Of a stretch of DNA of 64,000 bases, positions 40,841 to 61,845 are shown piece after piece. The notes beneath the pieces are model-generated. The model worked only from the letters and a program-made list of their open reading frames with translations, was not told the DNA's origin and did no database searches. Origin of the DNA: Minisyncoccota bacterium. GTDB lineage: Bacteria; Patescibacteriota; Minisyncoccia; RBG-13-40-8-A. The position numbers were made by a program, and so were the translations under genes. The DNA is taken from positions 431 through 64,430 of the forward strand of contig DATKZC010000025.1 of NCBI GenBank assembly GCA_035528175.1. Direction: 5' to 3'. The first letter of the stretch is position 1. Every line of letters begins with the position of its first letter.

Positions 40841-40895
40841 ACCTGACACCATTTGACACCTATTGACACTATCATTTTTACTACTATATAATTAA
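40841..40895 (+). promoter_or_regulatory. Promoter with three direct TGACAC repeats at exact 10-bp spacing
   Basis: TGACAC at 40844, 40854 and 40864. The last forms a TTGACA -35 with an about 18-nt spacer to TATAAT (40887-40892). The gene starts at 40902. Confidence 0.55.
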
Positions 40896-40901
40896 ATCAA
40901 T

Positions 40902-41150: not shown

Positions 41151-41160
41151 TTTAAATACT

Positions 41161-42120
41161 ATGAAAAAAGCTTTAGTTTGCGGAGCAGGTGGTTTTATTG
41201 GTGGCCATCTGGTAAAACAATTAAAAAAAGAAGGTTATTGGGTACGCGGAGTTGATTTAAAAAAACATGAATTTTCTCCAAGTGCTGCGGATGAATTTTT
41301 AATACTAGACCTAAGAGAAGAAAAAAATTGCCAAACAGCTGTTCTTGGCCCAAATGGCGAGATTTTTGACGAAGTTTACCAATTAGCAGCTGACATGGGC
41401 GGCATGGGATTTATTCATACAGCTGAATGCGAAATTATGCGCAATAACGCCTTAATCAATATTAATATGATTAATTCAAGCGCTGATGCCAGAGTCAAGC
41501 GTTATTTCTTTTCCTCGTCTGCCTGCATTTATAGGAATATGGAATATAATGAGCCCGAACTATCCGAAGAAGACGCTTACCCTGCATTACCAGATAATGA
41601 ATATGGCTGGGAAAAGCTTTATGCCGAGCGCATGGCCATGGCTTATGGCCGACGTTTTGGTCTGGCTATTCGATTGGCTCGATTCCAAAACTGCTATGGA
41701 CCAGAGGGCACATGGAAAGGCGGAAGGGAAAAGGCTCCAGCTGCATTGTGCCGTAAAATTGCTGAAGCCAAAGACGATGACACTATTGAAATTTGGGGCG
41801 ATGGCACGGCTATGCGTGCTTATACTTACATTGATGATATGATTGAAGGAATCCGTATGCTTATGGATTCTGAATTAGAAAACGGCGTGAATATCGGCCG
41901 ACAAGAATATGTGAGCGTAGACGAATTAGCGAAAACAATTGCCGAAATTTCCAACAAGAAAGTAAATCTTAAACATATAAATGGACCAGTGGGGGTAAAA
42001 GCTAGAAATTTCCGCATTGACCGCATTTCTTCTTTGGGCTGGAACTCCCAGTTTTCCCTACGAGATGGTCTAACTAAAACATATTCCTGGATTAAAGAAC
42101 AAGTATGGAAAACCTCATAA
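41161..42120 (+). CDS. NAD-dependent sugar epimerase/dehydratase (extended SDR)
   Basis: ALVCGAGGFIGGHLV Rossmann motif, catalytic YGWEK (YxxxK), 319 aa. Confidence 0.75.
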   Translation: MKKALVCGAGGFIGGHLVKQLKKEGYWVRGVDLKKHEFSPSAADEFLILDLREEKNCQTAVLGPNGEIFDEVYQLAADMGGMGFIHTAECEIMRNNALININMINSSADARVKRYFFSSSACIYRNMEYNEPELSEEDAYPALPDNEYGWEKLYAERMAMAYGRRFGLAIRLARFQNCYGPEGTWKGGREKAPAALCRKIAEAKDDDTIEIWGDGTAMRAYTYIDDMIEGIRMLMDSELENGVNIGRQEYVSVDELAKTIAEISNKKVNLKHINGPVGVKARNFRIDRISSLGWNSQFSLRDGLTKTYSWIKEQVWKTS

Positions 42121-42926
42121 TCATAAAACCTCAAAAGAGATTTAGCCTACAAGACTTAAAGGAAATTTGGATATATAAAGAATTGCTTTATTTCTTTACT
42201 TGGCGCGATCTTAAAGTCCGATACAAACAAACCGCAATAGGTGTTCTCTGGGCAATTTTCCGACCATTTATTACCATGATTATTTTTAGTGTCTTTTTCG
42301 GCGGACTAATGAAAGTTCCTTCTGATAATATCCCTTATCCTATATTTGTTTATGTTGGTCTATTGTTTTGGCAGTTGTTTTCCGCGTCTTTATCCGAATC
42401 TAGCAATAGCTTGGTCAGCAGCCGAGCCATATTTACGAAAATTTATTTTCCACGTTTAATTCTGCCGATTTCTTCAATAATTCCTCATTTTGTTGATTTT
42501 TTAATTGCTTCGATAATTCTAATTGGTATGATGTTTTATTATCATTTTATTCCTGGACTGATTGGTTTATTGATTCTGCCAATTTTAATTTTAATAACAC
42601 TAACAATGTCTTGCGGACTGGGCATCTTTTTATCGGCAATAAACGTTAAATACCGGGACGTGCCCCATATTCTGCCTTTTTTAATCCAAACATTAATGTT
42701 TGTTACCCCTGTTATTTATCCCACGAGCATATTACAAAAATATTCGTGGATTATGGCCATAAACCCCATGACCGGAGTTATTCAGACAGCTCGTGCGGCA
42801 ATATTGGGAACATCATCAATTAATTGGTTTTTATTGCTCATTTCTGGTTTGATTTGTTTAACGGTATTAATTTTTGGAATAATTTATTTTAAAAAAACAG
42901 AAAAACATTTTGCGGATTTGGTATAA
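42105..42926 (+). CDS. wzm: ABC-2 type polysaccharide/O-antigen export permease
   Basis: WRDLKVRYKQTAIGVLWAIFRPF N-terminal ABC-2 signature and 6 TM helices. Overlaps the upstream gene by 16 bp. Confidence 0.8.
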   Translation: MENLIIIKPQKRFSLQDLKEIWIYKELLYFFTWRDLKVRYKQTAIGVLWAIFRPFITMIIFSVFFGGLMKVPSDNIPYPIFVYVGLLFWQLFSASLSESSNSLVSSRAIFTKIYFPRLILPISSIIPHFVDFLIASIILIGMMFYYHFIPGLIGLLILPILILITLTMSCGLGIFLSAINVKYRDVPHILPFLIQTLMFVTPVIYPTSILQKYSWIMAINPMTGVIQTARAAILGTSSINWFLLLISGLICLTVLIFGIIYFKKTEKHFADLV

Positions 42927-42941
42927 AATTACAAAAAATAT

Positions 42942-44213
42942 ATGTCAGTCGTTGAAATAAAAAATATATCAAAAAAATATCGCATTATGCGCCAAAAAGA
43001 ACGCTATGGCACACTGCGCGATACGCTTATCAATATTACTAAAAACCCATTCAGATTTTTCAAAAATACCATACTAGGCAACAATACTAGAGAAGAATTC
43101 TGGGCATTAAAAAATATAAATTTAGATATCAAAAAGGGAGAAGCCATCGGCATAATTGGAGCTAATGGCGCCGGCAAGTCCACGTTTTTAAAAATTATTT
43201 CCAGAATCACATTCCCGACAACTGGCGAAATCAAAATCAGAGGACGAGTAGCTTCTTTGCTGGAAATCGGCACGGGATTCCATCCGGAATTAACGGGATA
43301 CGAAAATATTTTTCTGAACGGAGCTATTATGGGAATGACCAAAAAAGAAATTAAAGCGAAGCTTAACGATATAATTAAATTTGCCGGAATTGAAAAATTT
43401 ATTGATACTCCGGTAAAACGTTATTCGTCCGGCATGTATATCAGGCTTGCGTTTTCTGTGGCTGCACACATGGAGCCGGATATTTTAATAGTCGACGAAG
43501 TGCTTGCCGTGGGAGACGTCAGTTTTCAAAAAAAGTGTCTTGGGAAGATGAATGAAGTGGCCAAAAAACAAGGCAGGACCGTTTTATTCGTCAGTCATAA
43601 TATGGCGGCGATTCAAAACCTTTGTGAAAGGTGCATTCTATTAGAAAATGGGATGATTAAAAAACGGGGCAAGACAGATGAAATAATAAGTTACTACCTA
43701 AGTCAAACTAACGGTAATACCACTATTGGAGAATATAAACATAGCAAGAATGATTTTTTGGCAAATGATTTTGTTGAATTAATTTCCGTTAAATTAACCG
43801 ATCAAAACGGAGATATCAGTGCGGATTTTGGCTCCACTGAAGATATATATATGTTAATAGAGTATAAAATAAAAAAAGAATTATCCACTTTGGTTATTGA
43901 TGCCGACATTAAAAATGAAGATGGCCTTACCATATTTCACTCCACGGATAATGATGATGGCAAACTTGCCGGCGAAAAAAGGGTTCCTGGAACTTACATC
44001 AGTCGTTGCCAAATTCCTAAAAGTTTATTAAATACTGGAAAATATTTTGTAGGAGTAGGGGGAGGCATTCCTAAAATAGAACAATTTTTCCATGCAAAAA
44101 ATATTTTAAGCTTTAATTTAAGATCTACCGGCGGACCAACAAGCGTAGACTCGCCAAGAAGCGGGGTGGTCTGCCCCGAACTTAAGTGGGAAACTACTTT
44201 AAAAATGATATAA
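42942..44213 (+). CDS. wzt: ABC polysaccharide export ATP-binding protein with C-terminal carbohydrate-binding-like domain
   Basis: GIIGANGAGKST Walker A, YSSGMYIRLAF signature, ILIVDEVLAVGD Walker B, and a 170-aa beta-rich extension as in Wzt. Confidence 0.85.
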   Translation: MSVVEIKNISKKYRIMRQKERYGTLRDTLINITKNPFRFFKNTILGNNTREEFWALKNINLDIKKGEAIGIIGANGAGKSTFLKIISRITFPTTGEIKIRGRVASLLEIGTGFHPELTGYENIFLNGAIMGMTKKEIKAKLNDIIKFAGIEKFIDTPVKRYSSGMYIRLAFSVAAHMEPDILIVDEVLAVGDVSFQKKCLGKMNEVAKKQGRTVLFVSHNMAAIQNLCERCILLENGMIKKRGKTDEIISYYLSQTNGNTTIGEYKHSKNDFLANDFVELISVKLTDQNGDISADFGSTEDIYMLIEYKIKKELSTLVIDADIKNEDGLTIFHSTDNDDGKLAGEKRVPGTYISRCQIPKSLLNTGKYFVGVGGGIPKIEQFFHAKNILSFNLRSTGGPTSVDSPRSGVVCPELKWETTLKMI

Positions 44214-44221
44214 GTAATTTT

Positions 44222-45643
44222 ATGAAAATACTTTTACTTTACGATACAAAAGGCTCAAAAGCAAAGAATTTAATGCTAGAATTAGAAAAAAATTCTAATA
44301 AAATAATCTATTGGGTAGGCGCCCCTGGGGGAGAAATAGATAATTTGCCTGAAAGTATTTTTCATTCAAGCTCCGATGCATTGCTCGGATTGCCGGCTAA
44401 AAATATTAATATTTCTGAATTTGCTCCACCAAGCAATAATCTGATAGAAAAATTATACAGAACTGAATCTCTAATTCTAACGATGATGAATGCAAAATAC
44501 GATAATTTGCGCACCAGCGAACGCAAGCATTTATATTATGAAATGTTAAGATATTGGTACGGTATACTCAATAAATATAAACCAGATGTTGTTCTCCATG
44601 GACTTATCCCTCATGCCGTCCATACCTTTTTAATACAGGAATTGGCGCGCTTGCTAAATATCAAAACCGTGATGTTTGAAGACACAGGAGCATCTGATAG
44701 ATTACTGGCATTTAACGATTTCCGCGACGGAAGCAAAGATCTACAAAGAGAAATCAAAAGAAATCATGGCAAAAATTTTTCATTAAAAGATTTGAGCAAT
44801 GATATACAAAAATACTATAAATCACAACTCGACTTTAAGCACGATTCTACGCCAGTATATGTAGGAGTCCTGAAAAATCGATACACTGGATCAGAATTAT
44901 TAAAACGCAGATTGAACCGCTTTAGAAAAAGCATCCAAGAAGGCATTTTTCTGAAAACAATAATACAAACCATAATTAAGAGATTTAGAAAAAATAGCAA
45001 AGATGAATATGCCAGCCTTCAAGCCGAACCGGATTTAAATAAAAAATTTATTTATGCCCCGCTACATTTGCAGCCAGAATGCACCACTTCCCCAAAAGGC
45101 GATTTATTCGTTGACCAAATTCTAATGCTCGAAACTTTATCTGCCGCCCTACCCAAAGATTGGGTAATATATGTTAAAGAGCATCCAATTCAATGGTACC
45201 AGCGCGGAACAGATTTTTCCGGCGCAAGATACCGAGGATATTACAAAAAAATATCTGAGATAAAAAATATTCAATTGATTCCAGTCCAAATCAGCACCTA
45301 TACTTTAATCAATAAATCACAGGCAGTAGCTACTGTTGCCGGAATGGCATCGTGGGAAGCAGTACTGAGGTCTAAACCAGCCATAATATTCGGCTACTCC
45401 TGGTATAGGGATTGTTATGGAGTTTTTAAAGTTGATAACATTTACTCCTGTAGTGTGGCTTTAGAAAAAATTGCCAGCGGTTTTGCCGTAGACCAACAAC
45501 AAGTTATTAATTATTTAAAATGCTTTGATGATGCAACCATCCATGGATATCTCGACGTTGATTATGCAAAAAGCTCTGAACTTACTCCTGAAGAAAATAA
45601 AAATAATGTAATTCAAAAAATGTTATTTGAGATTAAAAATTAA
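44222..45643 (+). CDS. Capsule_synth (KpsC/KpsS)-like glycosyltransferase candidate
   Basis: Start set at MKILLLYDTKG. YAPLHLQPECTTSP and VKEHPIQW resemble the H.QPE and K.HP motifs of KpsC/KpsS-type ulosonic-acid transferases. By-eye only. Confidence 0.35.
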   Translation: MKILLLYDTKGSKAKNLMLELEKNSNKIIYWVGAPGGEIDNLPESIFHSSSDALLGLPAKNINISEFAPPSNNLIEKLYRTESLILTMMNAKYDNLRTSERKHLYYEMLRYWYGILNKYKPDVVLHGLIPHAVHTFLIQELARLLNIKTVMFEDTGASDRLLAFNDFRDGSKDLQREIKRNHGKNFSLKDLSNDIQKYYKSQLDFKHDSTPVYVGVLKNRYTGSELLKRRLNRFRKSIQEGIFLKTIIQTIIKRFRKNSKDEYASLQAEPDLNKKFIYAPLHLQPECTTSPKGDLFVDQILMLETLSAALPKDWVIYVKEHPIQWYQRGTDFSGARYRGYYKKISEIKNIQLIPVQISTYTLINKSQAVATVAGMASWEAVLRSKPAIIFGYSWYRDCYGVFKVDNIYSCSVALEKIASGFAVDQQQVINYLKCFDDATIHGYLDVDYAKSSELTPEENKNNVIQKMLFEIKN

Positions 45644-45663: not shown

Positions 45664-46644
45664 ATGATTGAAGATTTATTTAAAGATAAAACAATATTGA
45701 TTACAGGCGGCACCGGATCTTTTGGTTCCAATTTTGTTAAGTATCTACTAAAAAACTCTAAGGCAAAAAAATTAATAATTTACAGCAGAGACGAACTCAA
45801 GCAATCAAAGATGGATGCCGAAATCAATGACAAAAGACTGCGCTTCTTTATTGGAGATGTCCGAGAATCGGAAAGGTTGCGAAGGGCATTTAATGGCGTT
45901 GATATTGTGATACATGCTGCGGCCCTCAAACAAGTTCCGGCCTTGGAATATAATCCATTTGAAGCAATTAAAACCAATATACTCGGCAGCCAGAATATTA
46001 TCAATGCTGCCATTGACCAAGGAATAGAAAAAGTGTTGTTAGTTTCAACAGATAAAGCAGTCCATCCAGTAAATCTTTATGGCGCGACCAAATTATGCGC
46101 CGAGAAATTATTTGTAAACGGCAATGTTTATGCCCCTAAAAAATCAATCTTCAGCGTAGTAAGATATGGCAATGTTTTAGGCAGCCGGGGAAGTATTGTA
46201 GAAACATTACTTAAAGAGAAAAATCCGAAAAAAGTCCAAATTACCGATATGGAAATGACCCGATTCTGGATTACATTAGAACAGACATTTGAATTGGTAT
46301 TGTTTGCGCTTGAGCATATGCGCGGCGGGGAGATTTTTGTGCCCAAGATACCGAGCATGAAATTGGTTGATTTATTTGATGCTATTGCGCCAAACACAGA
46401 GAAAGAAATTATCGGAATCAGACCAGGAGAAAAACTGCACGAAGTCCTACTCACTCAGGAAGAAGCTAAACATGCCATGGAATTAGACAGACATTTCGCC
46501 ATCGTGCCTCATGATAAAAAACTGGAGTTTTACGCGGAAGTAATAAGAAACGGCAAAAAAGTAGCGCATGATTTTAGTTTTAGCAGCCATACCAATAATC
46601 ATTGGTTGACCAAGGAGGAGCTTAAAAAATTAATAAATAACTAA
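45664..46644 (+). CDS. pseB: UDP-GlcNAc 4,6-dehydratase (PseB/CapD/FlaA1-like inverting dehydratase)
   Basis: ILITGGTGSFGS, IYSRDELKQ, LRFFIGDVRE, VIHAAALKQVP...PFEAIKTNILGSQN, and STDKAVHPVNLYGATK with Lys in place of the usual SDR Tyr-partner arrangement, characteristic of PseB/CapD. Confidence 0.85.
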   Translation: MIEDLFKDKTILITGGTGSFGSNFVKYLLKNSKAKKLIIYSRDELKQSKMDAEINDKRLRFFIGDVRESERLRRAFNGVDIVIHAAALKQVPALEYNPFEAIKTNILGSQNIINAAIDQGIEKVLLVSTDKAVHPVNLYGATKLCAEKLFVNGNVYAPKKSIFSVVRYGNVLGSRGSIVETLLKEKNPKKVQITDMEMTRFWITLEQTFELVLFALEHMRGGEIFVPKIPSMKLVDLFDAIAPNTEKEIIGIRPGEKLHEVLLTQEEAKHAMELDRHFAIVPHDKKLEFYAEVIRNGKKVAHDFSFSSHTNNHWLTKEELKKLINN

Positions 46645-46651
46645 TTAAAAT

Positions 46652-47722
46652 ATGGCCAAAAAAGAATTCCCTAAAGTTATAAAAATAGGTTCAAAGTTAG
46701 TCGGCAAAGAACAACCAACGTACTTTATCGCTGACATCGGAGCAAACTTCGATAGCAATTTGGAAAAGGCGAAGAAATTGGCTTTAGCAGTAAAAAAATC
46801 TGGCGCAGATTGCGTTAAATTTCAAACTTTTGCAGCAGACAAAATTGTTTCCGGCCCAAGCTTCGCTAAAATGCATTTAAAAGGCATCCACGGGTCATGG
46901 AAAAAGCCAATTAACCAAATTTTTAAAGAAGCGGAATTCCCTAGGGCATGGCATAAAAAACTTGCTGATTACTGCAAAAAAATAAATATTGATTTCTCTT
47001 CTTCTCCATATGATTTCGAGGCCGTAGATCTTTTGGATAAAATCGGCGTTAATTTTTTCAAAATCGGCTCCGGAGAAATAATCTGGCCAGAAATGTTAAA
47101 ATATATCGCGAGAAAAAACAAACCGATGATTCTGGCAACCGGCGATAGCACATTGGCTGAAGTCGACGAGGCAATAAGAATTATTGAAAGTACAGGAAAC
47201 AATAAATTGATTTTACTTCAGTGCATCACCAATTATCCGTCCAAAATTGAAAATGCAAATATTAATGTCCTTAAAACATATCAAACCGCCTTCAATATTA
47301 TAACCGGATATTCTGATCATAGCCCGGGCGATATAGTCGTTCTGGGTTCTGTTGCATTGGGAGGCAAGGTAATCGAAAAACATTTTACGTTGAACAAAAA
47401 AGATTCTGGCCCAGACCATCCCCATTCTATGGAACCGCAAGAATTCAAACAAATGGTAGATAAAGTAAGATTATTAGAAAAAGCCCTTGGCAGCACCAGA
47501 AAAGAAGTTACGGCCGAAGAATTTGAAACTGTAATTGTCCAGCGTCGATCGCTTCATGTTAACAAAAATATCAAAGCGGGGGAAACAATCAAACGAAACG
47601 ATATAATCGAATTGAGACCAGCGACAGGAATACTTCCTAAACACAAAGACATTGTCGTTGGACGAAAAGCAAAAATCAATATTAAAAAACGCGAAGCAAT
47701 ACAATGGGAGGATATTGCATAA
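46652..47722 (+). CDS. Nonulosonic acid synthase (NeuB/PseI/LegI family) with C-terminal SAF domain
   Basis: YFIADIGANF, ADCVKFQTF TIM-barrel N-terminus of the NeuB family and a C-terminal antifreeze-like domain. Confidence 0.85.
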   Translation: MAKKEFPKVIKIGSKLVGKEQPTYFIADIGANFDSNLEKAKKLALAVKKSGADCVKFQTFAADKIVSGPSFAKMHLKGIHGSWKKPINQIFKEAEFPRAWHKKLADYCKKINIDFSSSPYDFEAVDLLDKIGVNFFKIGSGEIIWPEMLKYIARKNKPMILATGDSTLAEVDEAIRIIESTGNNKLILLQCITNYPSKIENANINVLKTYQTAFNIITGYSDHSPGDIVVLGSVALGGKVIEKHFTLNKKDSGPDHPHSMEPQEFKQMVDKVRLLEKALGSTRKEVTAEEFETVIVQRRSLHVNKNIKAGETIKRNDIIELRPATGILPKHKDIVVGRKAKINIKKREAIQWEDIA

Positions 47723-48999: not shown

Positions 49000-49689
49000 A
49001 TGAAAGACACAATTCTTTGGAATAAAGAGAGCGATAACTACACAAAAAGAGCTAAAATATCTTATGAGGATTTATATAATAGAAAAATAGATTATGATGA
49101 TGTCGAAAAACTTACAAAAATATTACCAACCAGAATTAAAACCATTTTAGATATTGGTTGTGGATTTGGAGGGTTTACAGGAAAATTAGCTGAAAAATTT
49201 CCTCGCGCAAAAATAATTGGCATTGATCCGGGAAAAAGAACAATTGCTTTGGCTAAAAATAAATTTAAAAAATATAAAAATTTGTCTTTCTATGTTGGGC
49301 ATTCACACAAAATAAATCTTAATGAGGAACAATTTGATTTAGTTATTCTAAGAATGGTTTTTCAATGGATTCCTAGAAAATATTTATTTAAAACAATCGC
49401 AGAAATTGATAAATTATGTAAAAATTTTATATTTATTAAAGAGTTTTATCCTGCCATTCCATCAAGCTCAAAATCTATTCATGATAAAAAAATTAAAATA
49501 TTCAAAGAAGATTACGCAAAAATTTTTATTAGCGTTCCGTGGTATAAATTAATATATAAAAAAATTCAGGATAAAAAATATGGGGATAGTTTTCAAAGAG
49601 GAGATTTTTTAATCCAAAAATTTTCTATTTCTAAATCATATATTTACAAAAAGGCCGTCCAAGAAAAAGATAAAAAAACGCAAAAATAA
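49000..49689 (+). CDS. Class I SAM-dependent methyltransferase
   Basis: ILDIGCGFGGFTGKLA (motif I), IIGIDPG (motif II), LVILRMVFQWIP. Confidence 0.7.
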   Translation: MKDTILWNKESDNYTKRAKISYEDLYNRKIDYDDVEKLTKILPTRIKTILDIGCGFGGFTGKLAEKFPRAKIIGIDPGKRTIALAKNKFKKYKNLSFYVGHSHKINLNEEQFDLVILRMVFQWIPRKYLFKTIAEIDKLCKNFIFIKEFYPAIPSSSKSIHDKKIKIFKEDYAKIFISVPWYKLIYKKIQDKKYGDSFQRGDFLIQKFSISKSYIYKKAVQEKDKKTQK

Positions 49690-49691: not shown

Positions 49692-50450
49692 ATGATTACA
49701 GCAATTATCCAAGCCAGAATGGGTTCTACAAGATTGCCCGGCAAAGTACTGAAAAAAATAAAAGGCAAAACCCTGCTGGAAATACTCGTAGAAAGATTAA
49801 GACAGGCAAAAAAAATAGATCAAATTATCATTGCCACCAGCACTGACAAAAAAAATTCGGCCATTGTTAAATTGGCAAAAAAAATAAATTGCTCTTATTT
49901 TATCGGAAATGAAAATGATGTCCTAGATAGAATTTACCAGACCGCTAAAAAATTCAAAGCGCAAACAATTATCAGAGTTACTGCCGATTGCCCATTCCAC
50001 GATCCTGAATTAATAGACCAAATGGTCAATTTTTATTTGAAAAATAAGGATAAATACGATTATGTAAGCAATGTCGACCCGCCAAGCTTTCCTGACGGAC
50101 TAGATCTCTGGATTATCCCCTTCAAAACTCTAGAGCGCACATGGAAAGAAGCAAAACTAACATCAGAAAGAGAGCATGTCTGCCCATACATCTGGAAAAA
50201 TCCTCACTTATTTAAAATCGGGCATTTTGAATCGAAAAAAGATTACTCCCATTTAAGATGGACTGTGGATGATATCGGCGATTTCAATTTTATTAAAAAA
50301 ATCTACGAAAAACTTTACAAAAAAGGAAAAATTTTCCACATGAAAGATATATTAGATTTATTAAAAAAACACCCAGAATTGCATAAAGCCCAAGAAGGAA
50401 AAATTAGAGATGCGGGATATTTAAAATCAATTAAAAACGATAAAAAATAA
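49692..50450 (+). CDS. CMP-nonulosonic acid synthetase / acylneuraminate cytidylyltransferase family (PseF/NeuA/KdsB-like)
   Basis: ITAIIQARMGSTRLPGKVLK (the N-terminal CTP_transf_3 signature) and RVTADCPF. Confidence 0.75.
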   Translation: MITAIIQARMGSTRLPGKVLKKIKGKTLLEILVERLRQAKKIDQIIIATSTDKKNSAIVKLAKKINCSYFIGNENDVLDRIYQTAKKFKAQTIIRVTADCPFHDPELIDQMVNFYLKNKDKYDYVSNVDPPSFPDGLDLWIIPFKTLERTWKEAKLTSEREHVCPYIWKNPHLFKIGHFESKKDYSHLRWTVDDIGDFNFIKKIYEKLYKKGKIFHMKDILDLLKKHPELHKAQEGKIRDAGYLKSIKNDKK

Positions 50451-50454: not shown

Positions 50455-51321
50455 ATGAAAGAAAGACTTCCTATCAGCATAATTATCCGCGCCATAAATG
50501 AAGAATCGAACATTTCTGATTGCATTAAAGCGTGCAAAGACAACAATCCTGAAGAAATTATTGTTGTTGATGGCGGCTCAAAGGATAAAACGCGAGAAAT
50601 AGCGCAGCAATGCGGAGCAAAAGTAGTAATTTCCGAACGCGGACTCTCTAATCAAAGAGATGCCGGCGTAAAAGCTGCTTCCTGTCCGTATATAGCCATT
50701 GTAGACGCTGATGACCGCTTAAAAGAAGACTGCCTGGAAAAGTTGCTTAAAGAAATAAGAGAAAACGATTACGACGCAATCCAAGCGCAACTGCGCAATT
50801 TCTACAAATGGTACGGCAATGAAGAAAAACAAGCAACATATCTTGAACGGGCAATGGATGTTAATCTTAGAATAATCCGCTCTCAAATCGGCCCTACAAC
50901 AATGGTTGGCAGGCCAGCGCTCTATAAAACAAGTTCACTAAAAGCTGTTCCCATGGATCCCCTGTTCCAGGACGCGTCCGAAGATTCAGACCTTTCGTAC
51001 AGATTCCATCAAAATGGATTCAAACAAGGAATAGGCACTGGAGTTTCTTACAGAAAACATCTTTCTAGTTTCAGAAAAGCCGTCAAAAAATACATTTTAA
51101 GCGGAAAGGGAGAAGCTTTATTTACTTTCCGCCATCCGGAAAGATTGTTCGCAACGCTCAAGCACGAGCTTTATGTGTATCCGATTAAAAGATCATTTAA
51201 AGCAATTCGCAATGGTTATATGTTTTATGCTCCGTTTTTCGTCTTGGTTGGCTGGTGCCGTTTCTTCGGTTTTATTAAAACAAAAATAAAGTTTCTTCTT
51301 AAGGGAAAACCTAGATTATGA
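50455..51321 (+). CDS. Family 2 glycosyltransferase
   Basis: ISIIIRAINEE, VVDGGSKDKT and AIVDADD (DxD) motifs. Confidence 0.75.
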   Translation: MKERLPISIIIRAINEESNISDCIKACKDNNPEEIIVVDGGSKDKTREIAQQCGAKVVISERGLSNQRDAGVKAASCPYIAIVDADDRLKEDCLEKLLKEIRENDYDAIQAQLRNFYKWYGNEEKQATYLERAMDVNLRIIRSQIGPTTMVGRPALYKTSSLKAVPMDPLFQDASEDSDLSYRFHQNGFKQGIGTGVSYRKHLSSFRKAVKKYILSGKGEALFTFRHPERLFATLKHELYVYPIKRSFKAIRNGYMFYAPFFVLVGWCRFFGFIKTKIKFLLKGKPRL

Positions 51322-52739
51322 AAATAGCTTTTATACAAAAAAGAACTTATGAAAAAATTGGCGTTCACCAAATTTCTGGCTGCCTGAAAAACGCCAACAA
51401 AGATTTTATAATTGATATTTTTATCGAAGAACTTGAACCTAATTTCTACGATAAAATTGCCACATTTAAGCCAGATTTTGTGCTCTACAGCCTTTTTATC
51501 GGCGAAGAATCATTCGTCTTGGAAGCATTTTCGAAAATAAAAGAATTCTTGCCCCAAGTTAAAACAATTATTGGCGGGCCATTCACGCTTGTTTTTCCAG
51601 AAATTGCCAAAAGAGACGAAGTTGATTTTGTAATCCGAGGTGACGGAGAATATTCTCTTCCCCTCTTTTTTAAATTATATGAGGACAAAAAATCTCTTCA
51701 TGAGGTTCCAGGAATATATTTCATACAAGAAGACGGAACTCTATTTAAAAATGACAATATCCGATTAACTTCTGATTTAAAAAACATTCCTGACCCGGAT
51801 CGAGATCTATATTACAAATACGAATCGCTACGTAATCAAGACACTAAAGGTTTTATCGCTTCGCGCGGATGCCCTTATAACTGTACTTATTGTTATAATG
51901 CCGAGCTTAAAAAGTTTTATACAGAGTCTTATTGGCGCCTCAGAGACCAAGAAGCGGTACTCAGGGAAATCGAATACGTCAAAAACAAATACGGCCTGAA
52001 ATGGGTTCATTTCCACGATGGTACGTTCAATTCGAGTATCGAATGGTTGAAGTCATTCCTTGTAGAATATAAAAAACGCGGCTTGCCACCTTTTCTCTGT
52101 AATTGCAGGGTAGAAAATATAAATGAGGAATCAGTATCTCTAATGAAACAGGCCGGTTGCGAGAGGATTACTTTTGGAATACAATCTGGCAACCAATATA
52201 TCAGGGAAGATATTTCTGGAAGGCATATGCCGGACAAACAAATAGAAGATGCTTTCGCGCTATGTAAAAAATATAACATCCGAGTTGGTGCAGATATTAT
52301 TTTTGGTTGGCCAGGAGAAACCATGGAACAAGCGATGGATACGATAAATATGTGCAGAAAAATCAAACCTGATACTTGCCATTCTAATGTACTTATTCCC
52401 TATCCTGGACTCTGGATTACTAAAAGAGCGATAAAAGAAGGATTTTTGGAACACGAACCGACTTTCAAAGAAATCAGAGAACTAGACAGCAATAAATCAT
52501 TAATAAAGCAAAAAAATATCAGATTGTTAATCAATATGGATAAACTTTTTAATTATTTGATACAATTTCCGTTTATAGAAAAGTTTTTCAAATTTTTACT
52601 GCACCTGCCTCCCAATAAGTTTTTCAAGTTTTTAAAAAATTTACATCTTTTAAAAAGAAGTTTAAAATATGATTCTGACGACTTTTTATCGTCACTCAAA
52701 ATTATTAGAAACTACATACAGCATTATAATGACGCTTAA
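51318..52739 (+). CDS. Cobalamin-binding radical SAM enzyme (class B rSAM)
   Basis: About 150-aa N-terminal B12-binding-like Rossmann domain (IIGGPF), then ASRGCPYNCTYCYN (CxxxCxxC) and ERITFGIQSG TIM-barrel motif. Confidence 0.75.
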   Translation: MKIAFIQKRTYEKIGVHQISGCLKNANKDFIIDIFIEELEPNFYDKIATFKPDFVLYSLFIGEESFVLEAFSKIKEFLPQVKTIIGGPFTLVFPEIAKRDEVDFVIRGDGEYSLPLFFKLYEDKKSLHEVPGIYFIQEDGTLFKNDNIRLTSDLKNIPDPDRDLYYKYESLRNQDTKGFIASRGCPYNCTYCYNAELKKFYTESYWRLRDQEAVLREIEYVKNKYGLKWVHFHDGTFNSSIEWLKSFLVEYKKRGLPPFLCNCRVENINEESVSLMKQAGCERITFGIQSGNQYIREDISGRHMPDKQIEDAFALCKKYNIRVGADIIFGWPGETMEQAMDTINMCRKIKPDTCHSNVLIPYPGLWITKRAIKEGFLEHEPTFKEIRELDSNKSLIKQKNIRLLINMDKLFNYLIQFPFIEKFFKFLLHLPPNKFFKFLKNLHLLKRSLKYDSDDFLSSLKIIRNYIQHYNDA

Positions 52740-52742
52740 TTT

Positions 52743-54368
52743 ATGAAAACAATAAAAAATATTTTATTTTTAAATCCGCCCGATCCTTCTTTATTGAAAC
52801 AAAATTCTAAAAAGATTAATTGTCCATATTTTGAACCTCCATTGGGATTGCTTTATGTTTATTCATTTATAAAAAGAAACAAAAAAGATTTGTCAGTCCG
52901 TTTTTGCGATCTGAATATAGAAATGGGCTTTAAGGGCGCAAAAACTCTTGAGGAGGCAATTAAACGCTCAATGGATAATTTTGCTCCCGACCTTGTTTGT
53001 GTGTCGGCCCTATATTATTCGGCAATTTCCATTTTTCATTCCACGGTAAAGGAAGTTAAAAAACTGGCGCCTGGTGTTTTGGTTGTATTGGGGGGGCACT
53101 ATGCGACTCATTTGACAAATATGGCAATGAAAGACGAATTAATTGACTTTTGCGTCCTTTCCGAGGGCGAAATCGGGCTGTCGGACTTAATTGACGCTCT
53201 TAACTCTGAAAAAAATCTTGAAGAAATAGAAGGTTTAGCCTATAGAAAAAACAATGAAATAATCAGGAAACCGCGCAATAATTTTTGGAGCGGATACAGC
53301 GATTTTGACACGCTGGAATGGAATGACTTGGAAATGGAATACTATTTCAAAGAAGGCAGAAACGTATTCGACAGATTCGAAAATAGAAATCAGAGAAAGT
53401 TTGCGGCAATGACTGCCACGCGCGGATGCCCGAATGCCTGCATTTTTTGCTCTTCAAAAAATTTCTGGCACAGAAATTGGAGAAAGAGAAAAATACCCAA
53501 AATCATAGATGAGGTAAAATTCCTAATTAATAATTATGGCGCAAACACGATTATTTTCAATGATGAAAACATGAGCGTAGACAAAGATTGGTTCTTCGAA
53601 TTAATGGATGAATTAGAAAAATTAAAAATTACCTGGATAGCAGGCAGCGGTCTCTCAGTAAGAACTATCAACGACGAAAAAGTGATTAAAAAAATGTATT
53701 CAAGCGGTATAGGATATTTTAATCTGGCCATTGAATCAAGTAGCGACGAATCACTAAAAAAATTACAGAAACCGAGTTCAATCGAAGAAATAAAAAACGT
53801 GATTAAAATGATTAGGGAAAACGGCAATGGTTATGTTAACGGGTTTTTTATAACCGGATTTCCGTTTGAAGCAAAAAAAGACGTAATTTATACTTATGAT
53901 TTTGCCCGCTCGCTCGGGCTGGATTGGTATTCTTTTTATTGCCTGCAACCATTCCCAGGAACCGAAATCCATAATTATTGCCTAGAAAATAAATTAATAG
54001 AAGCGTTTGATATAAACTATGGAGAAAATTATTTTGCTCCAGATATGAAACATTTGGATTATACTTCTGAAGAATTGAACAAATTGAACTATATAGCCAA
54101 CTTAAAATACAATTTTGTCGAAAATCGCAACTTAAAAATGAATACGGAAAAATCTCTCCAGCAGGCCGAACGCGACTTTAAATACATCCTTGATATGGTA
54201 CCCAATCATGTTTTCGCTTTTTGGGGATTATCGGAAATAGCAAGATTAAAAAATCAAGAAGACAAAAGGAAAGAATACATTGCTTTAGCGAAAAAAGCGC
54301 TTATTGAAGACAAAACTACAGACTGGCAATACTATTTAAAAGAATTTAATTTAAATATTAACCAATAA
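52743..54368 (+). CDS. Cobalamin-binding radical SAM enzyme (class B rSAM), tandem paralog
   Basis: N-terminal B12-binding-like domain (VVLGGHYATH), ATRGCPNACIFCSS (CxxxCxxC) and a C-terminal about 150-aa extension. Confidence 0.75.
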   Translation: MKTIKNILFLNPPDPSLLKQNSKKINCPYFEPPLGLLYVYSFIKRNKKDLSVRFCDLNIEMGFKGAKTLEEAIKRSMDNFAPDLVCVSALYYSAISIFHSTVKEVKKLAPGVLVVLGGHYATHLTNMAMKDELIDFCVLSEGEIGLSDLIDALNSEKNLEEIEGLAYRKNNEIIRKPRNNFWSGYSDFDTLEWNDLEMEYYFKEGRNVFDRFENRNQRKFAAMTATRGCPNACIFCSSKNFWHRNWRKRKIPKIIDEVKFLINNYGANTIIFNDENMSVDKDWFFELMDELEKLKITWIAGSGLSVRTINDEKVIKKMYSSGIGYFNLAIESSSDESLKKLQKPSSIEEIKNVIKMIRENGNGYVNGFFITGFPFEAKKDVIYTYDFARSLGLDWYSFYCLQPFPGTEIHNYCLENKLIEAFDINYGENYFAPDMKHLDYTSEELNKLNYIANLKYNFVENRNLKMNTEKSLQQAERDFKYILDMVPNHVFAFWGLSEIARLKNQEDKRKEYIALAKKALIEDKTTDWQYYLKEFNLNINQ

Positions 54369-54382: not shown

Positions 54383-55696
54383 ATGAAACCTAATCGAGGC
54401 ATCAAATTATGGAATAAAGCGAAAAAATTAATCCCTGGCGGCTCTCAGCTGCTTTCAAAGCGCGCAGAAATGTTTCTGCCAGACCAATGGCCTGCCTATT
54501 TTAAAAAATCCAAAGGCGTAAATGTCTGGGATTTAGACGGAAATAAATATCTGGACACATGGGCAAGTATTGGCGCCTGCATATTAGGCTATGCTGATCC
54601 GGATGTGAATAAAGCTGTTAAAAGAGCAATAGATGATGGTTCGGTATCTACGCTTAATTCACCAGAAGAAGTAGAACTGACAGAATTATTGTGCAAATTG
54701 CATCCCTGGGCTCAAATGGCAAGATATGCCAGAGGCGGAGGCGAAGCAATGGCAGTAGCTATTAGAATTGCCCGCGCTGCCAGCAACAAGGACAAAATAG
54801 CGTTCTGCGGTTATCATGGATGGCAGGATTGGTACCTTGCCGCAAACCTCGCTAAAGATAAAAACCTTGACGGACATCTCTTGCCTGGGCTTGAACCAAG
54901 GGGCGTACCCAGAGGGCTGAAAGGAACCGCCATCCCCTTCCATTACAACAAGATCGAGGAGCTTGAAAAAATAATTGCTCAAAATAGAGACATAGGAGTA
55001 ATTGTAATGGAACCATTAAGAGACCATGAACCACAAAACAATTTTTTACAGAAAGTCAGAAAGATTGCCGACAAAATCAATGCAGTATTGATTTTTGATG
55101 AAATAACTATTGGCTGGAGATTATGCATTGGCGGAGCGCATCTTAAATACGGAGTTAATCCCGACATTGCAGTATTCGCCAAAGGTATAAGCAATGGTTT
55201 TCCCATGGGGGCTATTATTGGCAAAAAGAAAATTATGGAAGCAGCTCAAACTAGCTTTATCAGCAGTTCTTCATGGACAGAAAGAATCGGTTTTACTGCT
55301 GCGCTGGCAACCATTAAAAAATTCATGGCTAAAAATGTTCCTGTCCATCTTAATAAAATTGGAAAAATACTTATCGTCGGCTTAAAAGAAGTTGCAAAAA
55401 AAAATGGAATAAAATTAACAATAGCCGGCCCTGCGCCATTATTCCATTTTTCTTTCGATTATGGCACGGACAGCCAGGCAATTCGCACTCTTTTTACGCA
55501 AGAAATGCTAAAAAGAGGAATTTTAGCTTCTGGTGGCGTTTATATCAGTTATAGTTTTAAAACTGAGCATGTTAAAAAATATTTAAAAGCAGCAGACAGC
55601 GTTTTTTTCTTGCTTAAAAAAGCCATTGATAAGAAAACAATTTACAGCTTATTGGAAGGACCAATTGCGCATAAACGATTTGAAAGATTAACCTAA
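54383..55696 (+). CDS. Class III PLP-dependent aminotransferase (GSA-aminomutase-like)
   Basis: GGSQLLSKR, VWDLDGNKYLD, GYHGWQDWY, VIFDEITIGWRL and FAKGISNGFPMGAI (PLP-Lys) are all class III hallmarks. Confidence 0.8.
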   Translation: MKPNRGIKLWNKAKKLIPGGSQLLSKRAEMFLPDQWPAYFKKSKGVNVWDLDGNKYLDTWASIGACILGYADPDVNKAVKRAIDDGSVSTLNSPEEVELTELLCKLHPWAQMARYARGGGEAMAVAIRIARAASNKDKIAFCGYHGWQDWYLAANLAKDKNLDGHLLPGLEPRGVPRGLKGTAIPFHYNKIEELEKIIAQNRDIGVIVMEPLRDHEPQNNFLQKVRKIADKINAVLIFDEITIGWRLCIGGAHLKYGVNPDIAVFAKGISNGFPMGAIIGKKKIMEAAQTSFISSSSWTERIGFTAALATIKKFMAKNVPVHLNKIGKILIVGLKEVAKKNGIKLTIAGPAPLFHFSFDYGTDSQAIRTLFTQEMLKRGILASGGVYISYSFKTEHVKKYLKAADSVFFLLKKAIDKKTIYSLLEGPIAHKRFERLT

Positions 55697-55701: not shown

Positions 55702-57234
55702 ATGGATGAATTCATAAGAAAAAACAAAGCATTTTGGTCCCAATTCAAGACCAAGCACGGAGAGAAAAAATTGCTTATTGAGGAACCCGGCCGTGTGATG
55801 ATTACGCATGCGAATGCGGTTTTCTCAATAATGATAAACCAGGCAAAAGATTATATGCCTGTGTGGCTTTGCGGCAAAGATTGCGAAGAAAAAAAGCTAA
55901 TTTTCTCTTATTGCCCTGAAGCAGAAATTATAACCACCAAAGAATGGACGTTTATAAAAATCTATTCTGCTTTAGTCGCTTTTGTTAAATATTTAAAGAT
56001 ATATTTAACCAAAGATGTATTAGGATTCCATTACGATGGCATAAAATACGGCGACATCCTCTACGATGCTTATCTATTTGAAAACAACGTCGCAACCATA
56101 AAAAAAATAGATTTTAAAATTATAAAAATTATCGCCAAGTGCATTTTCCGCCACATTAAGATTAAAAAAACCTTAAATAGCGGTAATTATTTCGGCGTTC
56201 TAGTTTCCCATTTAACCGGCATCAGCAGCGGCGTGATGGCGCGCTGCGCCCTGCGTTATGGCTATTATGTATATGTACGCACCGGCCACCATCGTTCAAG
56301 GCTTCAATTACTAAAAGGCACAGAAAGCTCTTATGATTATCCGCTTACCGCCCATATGACTGATGTTGATAAAATTATTACCCAAGCAGGACCGAACTTA
56401 GAAAAAATATTCCAAAAAACACTGGAAGAAGAAATTATTGGCAAAGGTAATGCAAACAGCATCAATGCCTTTTCAAAAAACAGTTCTTTTTATGATAATC
56501 GTATAGTTTTTAATTCCGATTATCATCTCGACCCGAATAAAAAAAATGTGTTTATCATGTTGCATATTTTCAACGACCACCCGCATTCGCACTTTCGATG
56601 GATGCTTTTCAACGATTATTATGACTGGATGGTGCAGACGCTCAACTTTGCCAAAACAAATAATAAGGTCAATTGGATTTTTAAACAGCATCCTTCAATT
56701 AAAAATTACGTTACTAAAGGTACGGATTTAAACGAATTATTCAAAGACCTACCCCCAAATATCGCTTATATCGATGAAAACAAACAAATAAACACTCAAA
56801 GTTTAATCCATTGCGCAGATTTAATTGTCACCTGCCTTGGTTCTGCTGGTTTTGAATTGCCGGCGATGAAAGCCATTCCCTCGCTGGTTGCTGGCGACAA
56901 CCCTTATACAGGGTTAGGTTTTGCCCTTGAACCGAAAACAAAGAAAGAATATTTTCAAATACTGGAGAATGCCGATAAAATTGACAAAATCAAACCCGAA
57001 GCGCAAAAACGCGCGCAAGCAGCCTTTATTTATATCTACAAAGTTTCCAATATAAATATGTCTGTCTGCCCCATTCTGTCCCAGGCAGAAGAAAAAGACA
57101 AAAACATTAAACAGCGTTATTGGAATATGATTTGCAACCAATATGCTACGAAAAAAGATATTATTTTAAAAGAATTAAACCAATATATTCAAGAAATAGC
57201 TAAGCCAAAATTTAAAAGATTGATTAATGAATAA
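55702..57234 (+). CDS. Unknown polysaccharide-biosynthesis protein, possibly a second Capsule_synth/TagF-like transferase
   Basis: FKQHPSIKNY and DLIVTCLGSAGFE resemble the K.HP and nucleotide-sugar-binding C-terminal half of KpsS/TagF-like enzymes. Weak call. Confidence 0.3.
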   Translation: MDEFIRKNKAFWSQFKTKHGEKKLLIEEPGRVMITHANAVFSIMINQAKDYMPVWLCGKDCEEKKLIFSYCPEAEIITTKEWTFIKIYSALVAFVKYLKIYLTKDVLGFHYDGIKYGDILYDAYLFENNVATIKKIDFKIIKIIAKCIFRHIKIKKTLNSGNYFGVLVSHLTGISSGVMARCALRYGYYVYVRTGHHRSRLQLLKGTESSYDYPLTAHMTDVDKIITQAGPNLEKIFQKTLEEEIIGKGNANSINAFSKNSSFYDNRIVFNSDYHLDPNKKNVFIMLHIFNDHPHSHFRWMLFNDYYDWMVQTLNFAKTNNKVNWIFKQHPSIKNYVTKGTDLNELFKDLPPNIAYIDENKQINTQSLIHCADLIVTCLGSAGFELPAMKAIPSLVAGDNPYTGLGFALEPKTKKEYFQILENADKIDKIKPEAQKRAQAAFIYIYKVSNINMSVCPILSQAEEKDKNIKQRYWNMICNQYATKKDIILKELNQYIQEIAKPKFKRLINE

Positions 57235-60083: not shown

Positions 60084-60749
60084 TTATTTTTTACACTCAA
60101 AATAATAAATTAAAACATATTTATCTTTATTGTGTATTTTTCTGATTCTGGCGATGATTTTATCCAATAAAATTGCCGGAAACATAAAGATGGGGCGGAG
60201 GAATCTTGGAATTGAAAAGGAAATTGTATAGTACCCCACAACAAATGGCCCATAGCCCAGCGCCTCAATCCGCACCTCTGCGAAGCCGGATGCTTTAAAA
60301 ATCCCTTCCAATGCCGACTTGGTATAGCGGAAATAATCATTAGGATCAGCATGCACGCTAGCCAGAAATGGAACTGCGCCGATTAGCCTGCCTCCTTGTC
60401 TCAAAACGCGGTGAGCTTCGCCAATTAGATTCCTATAATCGAAAATATGTTCCAGTAAATTAAAGCAAAGAACATAATCAAATTCTTTATCGTCAAATGG
60501 AAACTTCTGCTCTAAATCAGCATAAACATCGGGTTTTCTTTCATCCGAAACGTCAACTGAAATGATTTTAGAATCTTTGCTTATTTTTAAAAAATCATGG
60601 TAGCTTGGACGGATTGTTCCTGAACCCAAATCTAAAATCCTGCCATCTAATTCCTGGACTTTTCTCAGCCTATTATTCATTAAAATCCTAAGTATGGTTT
60701 TATCCTTTAGCGTCCCTATTATTAAATCTTTAAACAATTTGTTCCTCAT
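60084..60749 (-). CDS. Class I SAM-dependent methyltransferase (Methyltransf_11-like), tandem paralog
   Basis: RILDLGSGT (motif I), YVLCFNLLEHI, LRQGGRLI. Confidence 0.7.
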   Translation of the reverse strand: MRNKLFKDLIIGTLKDKTILRILMNNRLRKVQELDGRILDLGSGTIRPSYHDFLKISKDSKIISVDVSDERKPDVYADLEQKFPFDDKEFDYVLCFNLLEHIFDYRNLIGEAHRVLRQGGRLIGAVPFLASVHADPNDYFRYTKSALEGIFKASGFAEVRIEALGYGPFVVGYYTISFSIPRFLRPIFMFPAILLDKIIARIRKIHNKDKYVLIYYFECKK

Positions 60750-61845
60750 TTTTATCAGCTCTTAATCCCAATTTACAGCAACGCTTACAAATTGGCAATA
60801 AGTTATTTTTTACTAATTTATTCCTAAACGATTTGAATTCCTCCTTGTTCCAAATCTGCTCCATTGTTTCATTAAGCAGATTGCCGAAAGGCTTTTTGAT
60901 AAAAGGGCAAAAAATCACATCGCCCTGGGCATTAACCCTACCAACAAACATATTCTTGCAGACAAGCTTGGTTTTGCCTCTTAATCTCCCGCCATAGAGT
61001 TCTTCGGGGAAAGAATCGAAAATATCTGGATGTATAACTACATTTATCCCTTTGATTTTCCTTATTTTACTAATTGTCTCTTTTAATTTATTGAAAGAAA
61101 ATTTATACCCGGGCTGGCTTGATATTGAAGTTGCAAATGCCGGATTCTCTTCGACTAATATCTTTTTAGAAGCAACGGCTTCCTCGGCAGTAGAAAACAT
61201 TTCCATGGTCAACCCAAAATTAATCACTCCCATATTGCTTAGATATTGGACTAAATCATAAAGCTCATCAAGATTGCTCTCCATCATTACCGAATTGACG
61301 CTTACATTAAAATCGTTTTTAAGCAGGTTTATCGCCTTAATCGTTCTATCAAAAGCCGAATTAAGCCCTCTGATTTTATTATGCGTCTCTTTTGAACCAT
61401 CAAGAGAAAAACCGATGCCGCGAATCCCATTTTTATATTTTTTCAGCTTTTCAGCAACTTCTTCGTTTATCAAGGTGCCATTACTTGTCAGATACAGCTT
61501 GATTCCTCTTTTTATAAACTCTTCTATAATTTGGAAAATATCCGGTCTGGTAAAAATTTCCGCTCCTATCAACGAAGCTTGTTTAATATTGCCAAGATTA
61601 TTGATAACTTTCTTGATTTCTTCAAAAGACAAATCGCGCTTTCCCAATAATCTTTCTTCTTTTTGGTAGCACATCACGCAGTTCAAATTGCATTTTGTGG
61701 TTAATTCAAAACCCACAGACAGCGGCAAATCTGCTGTCCCATCTGGCAATAAAATTTGTCGGCGGCTACGAAAAAAAACCCTCTTTATTGGGTCTGCCAA
61801 GCGAAGCTTCTTAGTAATTCTAATAGCTAAAATCCTGAAATTCAT
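60730..61845 (-). CDS. Radical SAM enzyme with C-terminal SPASM/twitch domain (paralog of 38672-39781)
   Basis: CNLNCVMCYQ (CxxxCxxC), GxE-like LIGAEIFTRPD, and a C-terminal Cys cluster (CKNMF...CPFIKKPFGN...PICKRCC). Confidence 0.7.
   Translation of the reverse strand: MNFRILAIRITKKLRLADPIKRVFFRSRRQILLPDGTADLPLSVGFELTTKCNLNCVMCYQKEERLLGKRDLSFEEIKKVINNLGNIKQASLIGAEIFTRPDIFQIIEEFIKRGIKLYLTSNGTLINEEVAEKLKKYKNGIRGIGFSLDGSKETHNKIRGLNSAFDRTIKAINLLKNDFNVSVNSVMMESNLDELYDLVQYLSNMGVINFGLTMEMFSTAEEAVASKKILVEENPAFATSISSQPGYKFSFNKLKETISKIRKIKGINVVIHPDIFDSFPEELYGGRLRGKTKLVCKNMFVGRVNAQGDVIFCPFIKKPFGNLLNETMEQIWNKEEFKSFRNKLVKNNLLPICKRCCKLGLRADKNEEQIV

Follow-up and report, generated by a model that had tools for sequence, protein, structure and literature searches.

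A tandem pair of B12-binding-type radical SAM enzymes in a predicted nonulosonic-acid glycan operon of a Candidatus Paceibacterota bacterium

Introduction

Do bacteria with reduced genomes modify their surface sugars by cobalamin-dependent radical chemistry? The question is raised by a 64,000-nucleotide stretch of contig DATKZC010000025.1 (GenBank assembly GCA_035528175.1; hereafter the window), whose host is a Candidatus Paceibacterota bacterium of the candidate phyla radiation (CPR). Two adjacent plus-strand genes of the window, rSAM-A (51318-52739, 473 aa) and rSAM-B (52743-54368, 541 aa), encode radical S-adenosylmethionine (SAM) enzymes of class B, the class with a B12-binding domain, and sit in a 22-kb plus-strand operon (35957-58402). 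The class and the basic annotation are already known: public pipelines label the homologs as B12-binding domain-containing radical SAM proteins. We ask here whether the pair binds cobalamin, what it acts on and what this would mean for its host. Our best explanation, whose chances as a whole we put at about even, is that the two enzymes C-methylate a nonulosonic-acid or lipid-linked sugar precursor.

Results

Domains and motifs of rSAM-A and rSAM-B

The original prediction, made from the letters of the window, had described two open reading frames (ORFs) of 473 and 541 aa, and both were found with exactly these lengths and coordinates. rSAM-A consists of a Rossmann domain (residues ~1-125), a radical SAM core (~176-360) and a helical C-terminal domain (361-473); in rSAM-B the Rossmann domain covers residues ~1-160, the radical SAM core ~219-405 and a TPR-like helical C-terminal domain ~442-541. 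The GCPYNCTYC and GCPNACIFC cores are also in place, as the CxxxCxxC [4Fe-4S]/SAM motifs of rSAM-A (51870-51893, plus strand; RGCPYNCTYC; C185, C189 and C192) and rSAM-B (53427-53450, plus strand; RGCPNACIFC; C229, C233 and C236). Their cysteines are invariant (58/58) in each of the two family alignments, one of 58 sequences per family, with members reaching down to ~22-27% identity to the window proteins; all conservation counts given here refer to these alignments. The proposed N-terminal B12-binding-like domains were upheld by profile scans, in which both proteins scored above the cut-offs of Pfam B12-binding PF02310 (rSAM-A 39.7 and rSAM-B 48.8 bits; cut-off 32.1) and Radical_SAM PF04055 (90.5 and 65.0 bits; gathering cut-off 29.5). 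The AlphaFold2 (AF2) models are confident, with predicted local distance difference test (pLDDT) values of 94.9 for rSAM-A and 93.8 for rSAM-B, and match radical SAM structures with the partial TIM-barrel fold.

The two genes had been called adjacent paralogs. Adjacency and paralogy stand, but a recent tandem duplication is ruled out by the identity of the proteins, merely 22% across ~430 residues, which points to anciently diverged paralogs. The extra C-terminal domain of about 150 aa that had been assigned to rSAM-B proved not to be extra: the rSAM-A region after the radical SAM core (~128 aa; helical domain 361-473) aligns with rSAM-B up to residue 493 of the latter. The post-core helical region of rSAM-B (residues 406-541) is somewhat longer than that of rSAM-A, and the protein as a whole is longer by ~30 aa N-terminally (30 extra residues ahead of the alignment) and by ~15 aa C-terminally (48 vs 35 unaligned residues past it). 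The C-terminal tail of rSAM-B matches TPR repeat proteins, and the C-terminal helical region of rSAM-A is hydrophobic and basic and could sit at the membrane.

Evidence for cobalamin binding

Judging from their N-terminal domains, rSAM-A and rSAM-B probably bind cobalamin. Class B radical SAM members bind it base-off without a coordinating histidine (PMC12931638); since true members lack this histidine, a DxHxxG test is not usable for cobalamin binding (PMC12931638). The N-terminal domains of the pair are homologous to those of cobalamin-bound TokK, OxsB, CysS, TsrM and MgmA, and not to that of AprD4 (PDB 6FD2), a 1,2-diol dehydratase of apramycin biosynthesis and a radical SAM enzyme that works without cobalamin and binds none (PMC12931638). 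The rSAM-B family profile runs through the Rossmann domain in TokK (profile positions 79-382), OxsB (36-389), CysS (69-279) and TsrM (66-391), and scores -1.9 bits against the AprD4 N-terminal domain. The NCBIfam models that align from the N-terminus are BchE, BzaD and HpnR for rSAM-A and BchE, SD_1168, ApyD and KedN5 for rSAM-B, all of them experimentally B12-dependent families; the AprD4 model matches the radical SAM core alone in both proteins.

The B12-domain motifs of rSAM-A (51471-51650, plus strand; P52-D53...S58, G86-G87 and G108-D-G-E111) line up with the PD..S, GG and GEGE-type motifs of cobalamin-bound CysS, OxsB, MgmA and 4Q37, and rSAM-B carries its own set (52986-53171, plus strand; P82-D83...S88, Y92, G117-G118 and E141-G142-E143). 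PD..S, GG and G(E/D)GE (residues 108-111 of rSAM-A and 140-143 of rSAM-B) are common to the cobalamin-bound structures and invariant or near-invariant in both families. In the rSAM-A family the counts are 57/58 for P52, 53/58 for S58, 58/58 for G86, 54/58 for G87, 56/58 for G108 and 57/58 for E111; in the rSAM-B family they are 58/58 for both G117 and G118 and 57/58 for E143.

In low-scoring alignments Y92 of rSAM-B, kept in 48/58, falls opposite the lower-axial W76 of TokK, and F60 of rSAM-A falls opposite N186 of OxsB, at a position occupied by F, Y or M in 40 of the 58 sequences. A hydrophobic lower face of cobalamin (TokK W76, Mmp10 L322) has been tied to radical methylases, as a tendency only (PMC12931638). 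The lower-axial residues of OxsB and TsrM are polar, unlike the residues that these weak alignments assign to rSAM-A and rSAM-B.

A conserved gene module under purifying selection

We compared all loci with an rSAM-A homolog at least 44% identical. They represent eight lineages: the window; a CPR relative whose rSAM-A is 82% identical (loci L005 and L006); Komeilibacteria (L007/L008, GCA_002788435.1); Chloroflexota (L009, GCA_042583205.1); a metagenome-assembled genome (MAG) labelled Fibrobacterota (L010); and the lineages of L090, L091 and L092. An rSAM-B homolog adjoins or lies near rSAM-A in 8/8 lineages, and all eight also have a family 2 glycosyltransferase (GT2) gene, which adjoins the pair in seven; in the Chloroflexota locus it is ~2.4 kb upstream of the rSAM genes, with two genes intervening. 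A CTP_transf_3 cytidylyltransferase gene and a class III aminotransferase gene occur at most 10 kb from the pair in all eight lineages, and a NeuB-like synthase gene at the locus in 7/8. The module spans three labelled phyla (CPR, Chloroflexota and the 'Fibrobacterota' MAG). Protein searches returned 11 further pairs of rSAM-A and rSAM-B homologs whose members lie on contigs of identical size, and more than 50 full-length homologs of each protein, the closest named ones from Candidatus Staskawiczbacteria and Komeilibacteria. In relatives at ~30% identity the module is absent; a scan of species-representative genomes with the generic pattern RGC[PA][YF]xC[TS][YF]C was saturated and gave, besides L010, mostly such relatives without the module. 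The conserved GT2, rSAM-A and rSAM-B core together with a variant nonulosonic-acid pathway across phyla is undescribed in the searchable literature.

Both genes are under purifying selection. Between the window and the 82%-identical relative, dN/dS is 0.072 for rSAM-A and 0.068 for rSAM-B, the same as for the neighbouring sugar genes. The exact rSAM-A protein was also found on contigs of four other metagenome assemblies, with identical gene order.

The same comparison shows uneven divergence along the locus. The dS value of rSAM-A (51318-52739 vs L005:10001-13354) is 1.52 at 82% amino acid identity, while the neighbours have 0.2-0.5 at ~95%, and the NeuB gene is likewise raised, at 0.77. The glycan locus is thus mosaic, which suggests recombinational allele exchange within it. 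In L005, moreover, rSAM-A and rSAM-B are separated by an additional SPASM radical SAM gene and a GFO_IDH gene. Split genes were seen in two of the compared lineages: in L090 (ENA ERZ25039477, contig_29459) many genes (PseB-like, DegT, AKR and class III aminotransferase) are broken into 2-3 ORFs, and in Komeilibacteria (L007/L008:14470-17132) OTCase-like and carbamoyltransferase genes are fragmented. The L090 pattern is typical of indel-rich assemblies, and frameshifts from such assemblies need caution.

The glycan operon around the pair

The expected setting, a surface-glycan locus with a GT2 gene upstream of the pair and a class III aminotransferase gene downstream, was confirmed by Pfam scans. 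The GT2 (50455-51321, plus strand, 288 aa) has a hydrophobic C-terminal segment and weakly resembles polyprenyl-phosphate glycosyltransferases; the aminotransferase (54383-55696, plus strand) is a class III (glutamate-1-semialdehyde (GSA)-aminomutase-like) pyridoxal phosphate enzyme. The GT2 stop and the rSAM-A start overlap (ATGA), rSAM-A and rSAM-B are 3 nt apart and the aminotransferase gene starts 14 nt past rSAM-B. Because the junctions are overlapping or nearly so, they indicate that the four genes are probably co-transcribed. Internal promoters or terminators that would split the operon were rejected, as their counts are no higher than in shuffled sequence.

Just upstream of the GT2 lie genes for a class I SAM methyltransferase (49000-49689, plus strand), which matches the 'pseudaminic acid biosynthesis-associated methylase' family (TIGR03587) weakly, with 35.8 bits and under the cut-off, but over nearly the full length, and for a CTP_transf_3 (SpsF/KdsB-like) cytidylyltransferase (49692-50450, plus strand), which presumably activates an ulosonic acid with cytidine monophosphate (CMP). 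They are preceded by PseB, an inverting UDP-GlcNAc 4,6-dehydratase, and a NeuB-like nonulosonic acid synthase (together 45664-47722, plus strand), with a DUF218 protein and then a 222-aa protein encoded between the synthase and the methyltransferase. PseB reaches the equivalog cut-off of its family (TIGR03589, 461.5 vs 407.75 bits). The NeuB-like synthase is below both of its cut-offs (PseI, 303.4 vs 340.25 bits; NeuB, 321.7 vs 399.65), and the cytidylyltransferase is not PseF-like (27.4 vs 205.7 bits).

The operon begins (35957-44213, plus strand) with genes for a Bac_transf initiating transferase, a DUF4910/M28-like protein, a radical SAM/SPASM protein, a GFO_IDH oxidoreductase, a short-chain dehydrogenase/reductase (SDR) epimerase and a Wzm/Wzt ATP-binding cassette (ABC) exporter. 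The second gene of the operon (37331-38668) is aminopeptidase-like (DUF4910/DUF2172/Peptidase_M28-like). A Capsule_synth (KpsC/KpsS-like) protein of 485 aa (44186-45643, plus strand) is a candidate CMP-ulosonic-acid transferase. The aminotransferase gene is followed by one for a 510-aa protein without a family match (55702-57234, plus strand), a weak paralog of the Capsule_synth-like protein (E 1e-4) that has a '(E/Q)HP' region in common with it and may be a second transferase of this kind; the two flank the module. A family 4 glycosyltransferase (GT4) gene is the last of the plus-strand operon, and the convergent block past it holds GT4 genes, two methyltransferase genes and another SPASM radical SAM gene.

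Further radical SAM/SPASM genes of the glycan cluster lie at 38672-39781 (plus strand) and 60730-61845 (minus strand). The protein of 38672-39781 matches the NCBIfam 'spiro-SPASM' model with 84.5 bits, under its cut-off, and the other half of this model is matched by the CTP_transf_3 protein of the window (47.7 bits). The split matches hint that SpsF-like cytidylyltransferases and SPASM radical SAM enzymes may repeatedly be linked in function.

The rest of the window

The SecA protein of the window is 100% identical to one from a Candidatus Paceibacterota MAG, and Patescibacteria and Portnoybacteria come next among named relatives. In gene content the left half of the window is CPR-like: it has compact housekeeping genes, DUF5667, TrwB/DUF87 ATPases and a protein that combines sigma70_r4 with HARE-HTH. 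A small radical SAM gene that stands alone is found near genes for a NifU-like scaffold and a class V aminotransferase, a NifS-like cysteine desulfurase (1310-2179 and 3151-4717, minus strand); the NifU-like and NifS-like genes look like a minimal Fe-S assembly pair, which this radical-SAM-rich region would need. The two TrwB/DUF87 (HerA/VirD4-like) ATPase genes (11076-13529 and 20161-21702, minus strand) have tRNA synthetase genes and several ORFs without a family match around them; one of the two ATPases carries a treble-clef zinc finger at its C-terminus. GC skew is strongly negative at 1-36 kb, where genes are on the minus strand, and about zero or positive at 36-56 kb, where they are on the plus strand. 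It shifts at ~35900-36000, exactly at the divergent Wzy_C/TPR - Bac_transf junction, and tracks the direction of transcription.

Discussion

The substrate of the pair is probably a glycan precursor, and for methyltransfer as the chemistry we see the case as evenly balanced. In the mechanism that we propose, the [4Fe-4S] cluster of each enzyme would reductively cleave SAM to a 5'-deoxyadenosyl radical, which would take a hydrogen off an unactivated carbon in a sugar building block, and base-off methylcobalamin on the N-terminal Rossmann domain would then give the methyl group. The substrate could be a polyprenyl-phosphate sugar that the adjacent GT2 makes, or else the CMP-activated nonulosonic acid or a precursor of it, and rSAM-A and rSAM-B would either modify two different positions or act one after the other. 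Further tailoring would fall to the class III aminotransferase, the SAM methyltransferase and an oxidoreductase, before the KpsC/S-like and GT4 transferases assemble the polymer.

Known systems offer partial precedents for this proposal. The class B enzymes GenK and GenD1 (gentamicin), Fom3 (fosfomycin, with a cytidylylated substrate) and MoeK5 (moenomycin) methylate unactivated sp3 carbons of carbohydrates or CMP-linked substrates (PMC12931638). They appear to be the best functional analogy for the pair, the likeness being one of analogy only, and they belong to actinobacterial antibiotic clusters and not, as here, to a CPR cell-surface glycan operon. In gentamicin 6'-tailoring, GenK is accompanied by a dehydrogenase and an aminotransferase of class III (GenQ/GenB1), a set that by analogy resembles the combination of GFO_IDH, class III aminotransferase and radical SAM genes of the window. 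The pairing of aminotransferase and cytidylyltransferase has a precedent in nonulosonic-acid loci: the O-antigen locus of Legionella pneumophila Sg6/Sg12 has a GSA-like aminotransferase gene beside an acylneuraminate-type cytidylyltransferase gene, plus PseG and acetyltransferases (PMC3694923). Among the sps legionaminic acid genes of B. subtilis, an SpsF-type CTP_transf_3 protein has been proposed to carry out the step to CMP-legionaminic acid (PMC7439481). Unlike the window, neither locus is reported to hold radical SAM genes of the B12 type. Our full-text literature searches found no paper tying radical SAM enzymes to nonulosonic-acid tailoring; nonulosonic acid with radical SAM gave none, and pseudaminic acid with radical SAM gave incidental co-mentions only.

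Several observations weigh against cobalamin-dependent methylation of a nonulosonic acid. Some class B-like enzymes bind no cobalamin (PMC12931638), and the overall fold of the AF2 models matches cobalamin-free AprD4 as well as it matches B12-dependent enzymes. The claim that the pair implies a B12 requirement holds in part: the N-terminal homology and motifs support cobalamin binding, while the overall fold does not discriminate against AprD4. Neither the window nor seven orthologous loci yielded a cobalamin riboswitch, transporter or salvage gene, and Pfam scans of window ORFs of at least 120 aa on the gene-bearing strand gave no Cob, Cbi or Btu family match; these negatives cover the 64-kb window and the orthologous loci and are uninformative for the whole genome. 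Class B enzymes also carry out ring contraction, cyclisation and thioether formation. All NCBIfam equivalog cut-offs, those of HpnJ, BchE, MgmA, PhpK/SD_1168, BzaD, HpnR, AprD4, ArsL and others, were missed, the best scores being 126.6 vs 577.6 bits with HpnJ for rSAM-A, and 155.4 vs 481.35 with BchE and 153.2 vs 575 with SD_1168 for rSAM-B. The two proteins represent uncharacterised subfamilies of a known enzyme class. Phosphonate or phosphinate P-methylation, which the SD_1168 and PhpK matches brought up, was rejected as the leading idea, there being no PEP-mutase-type gene among the annotated operon ORFs. Finally, the canonical PseC (DegT), PseH, PseG and PseF steps were not recognisable among the scanned window ORFs. 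As PseB is present but the PseI, NeuB and PseF cut-offs are missed and DegT, PseH and PseG are lacking among these ORFs, the locus is predicted to encode a variant, non-canonical pathway of the pseudaminic type that feeds an ABC-transporter-dependent glycan.

A frameshift in one relative also counts against the proposal. In the 82%-identical relative, the ORF of the rSAM-B ortholog is split by the loss of one nucleotide, which creates an A7 run close to codon 46 (L005:13392-13610 and L006:10943-11161, orthologous to window positions 52743-52960); the same deletion is present in two independent assemblies, L005 from JGI and L006 from ENA. The copy is otherwise intact, with dN/dS of 0.068 downstream of the lesion. 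We regard it as a recent lesion or very recent pseudogene, a site of slippage or phase variation, or an artefact that both assemblies share, and not as long-term decay. Pseudogenisation in relatives, which the original prediction had named as a sign against itself, is thus confined to this one ortholog and is not seen generally among the full-length homologs. It is very improbable that in this lineage the pair is a remnant, decaying or dispensable and with no physiological meaning: the deletion speaks for this, but both window genes are intact, identical copies occur in the four other metagenome assemblies, dN/dS is ~0.07, also past the lesion, and all motifs are retained in the full-length homologs, of which there are more than 50 for each protein.

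The alternatives that accept a functional pair differ in cofactor, chemistry or substrate. The two Rossmann domains could have lost cobalamin binding, the enzymes being AprD4-like cobalamin-independent sugar dehydratases, or catalysts of other radical chemistry, with no need for B12. We consider this unlikely. The AprD4 N-terminal domain aligns with neither family and those of the cobalamin-bound enzymes do, the Pfam B12-binding scores are above the cut-off in both proteins, and the retained GG, PD..S and GEGE motifs, near-invariant down to ~22-27% identity, would be hard to explain in a vestigial domain. A non-glycan substrate, for example a peptide modified in the manner of ribosomally synthesised and post-translationally modified peptides (RiPPs) or a membrane lipid, with the operon location incidental, is improbable as well, even though NCBIfam gives moderate matches to RiPP methylases (ApyD, rSAM_ocin_1) and a ladderane lipid radical SAM family, and the solved structure closest to both proteins, MgmA (PDB 9CCB), is a B12-dependent C-methyltransferase that modifies a protein. 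MgmA/QCMT, the glutamine C-methyltransferase of methyl-coenzyme M reductase, is just 16-19% identical to rSAM-A and rSAM-B, and its NCBIfam model, with a cut-off of 360 bits, gives 73 with rSAM-A and 114 with rSAM-B. MgmA acts on a protein side chain in methanogens, whereas rSAM-A and rSAM-B belong to a glycan operon and have extra C-terminal helical/TPR-like domains. The overlapping or nearly overlapping gene junctions also speak against an incidental location, as does the linkage to GT2, cytidylyltransferase, aminotransferase and NeuB genes, conserved in 8 lineages across phyla, and no precursor-peptide or lipid-synthesis genes were recognised among the scanned operon ORFs.

A different chemistry deserves closer comparison. 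Both enzymes may be B12-dependent and one or both may catalyse a radical rearrangement, an HpnJ-like ring contraction or a BchE-/OxsB-like cyclisation or contraction, of a glycosylated intermediate made by the GT2. HpnJ, which tops the NCBIfam matches of rSAM-A (E 1.2e-36), offers a precedent for a class B radical SAM enzyme that has a GT2 as its partner and a glycosylated lipid as its substrate: in hopanoid biosynthesis, on the way to the hopanoid cyclitol ether, it acts downstream of the GT2 HpnI on a GlcNAc-lipid. BchE tops the matches of rSAM-B, GT2 is the most tightly linked partner gene of the pair, and the hydrophobic, basic C-terminal region of rSAM-A would suit an enzyme working at the membrane. 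HpnJ differs in that ring contraction, not methylation, is proposed for it; the scores lie far under the cut-offs (127 vs 578 bits, and 155 vs 481 for BchE), and the window has no hopanoid or bacteriochlorophyll genes. The lower-axial residues, as far as the weak alignments place them, are hydrophobic as in methylases and not polar as in OxsB and TsrM, and methyltransfer is by far the commonest class B chemistry (PMC12931638). Taken together, rearrangement seems to us a minority possibility, and C-methylation of a glycan precursor is the reading that we prefer.

CPR genomes are small and poor in cofactor biosynthesis, and the use of cobamides without own synthesis is common among bacteria. A B12 requirement in this organism would be expected, and cofactor dependence would by itself be unsurprising. 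B12 auxotrophy of the host, with dependence on its community for the cofactor, is plausible. Our literature searches on CPR or Patescibacteria together with cobalamin or cobamide found nothing on point; one passing mention concerns B12-dependent radical SAM genes beside AzeJ homologs, in a cluster type that includes a CPR clade.

Tentatively, and against our own expectation, the module may make an undescribed nonulosonic acid or lipid-linked sugar, radically C-methylated, chain-extended or rearranged, which CPR bacteria, some Chloroflexota and other lineages would carry on their surface. The gene set of GT2, rSAM-A, rSAM-B, cytidylyltransferase, aminotransferase and NeuB-like synthase is compact and testable. 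If the proposal is right, radical C-methylation or rearrangement would be a new type of modification for sialic-acid-like sugars, and nonulosonic-acid biosynthesis would gain its first radical tailoring step that depends on B12. The module would also exemplify a trait of a reduced genome that is non-essential, exposed at the surface and reliant on an external cofactor. Cells recognise one another through sialic-acid-like sugars, and the attachment of CPR episymbionts to their hosts hinges on surface recognition; a surface-glycan trait of these ultra-small episymbionts would then be conditional on the cobamide of their community.

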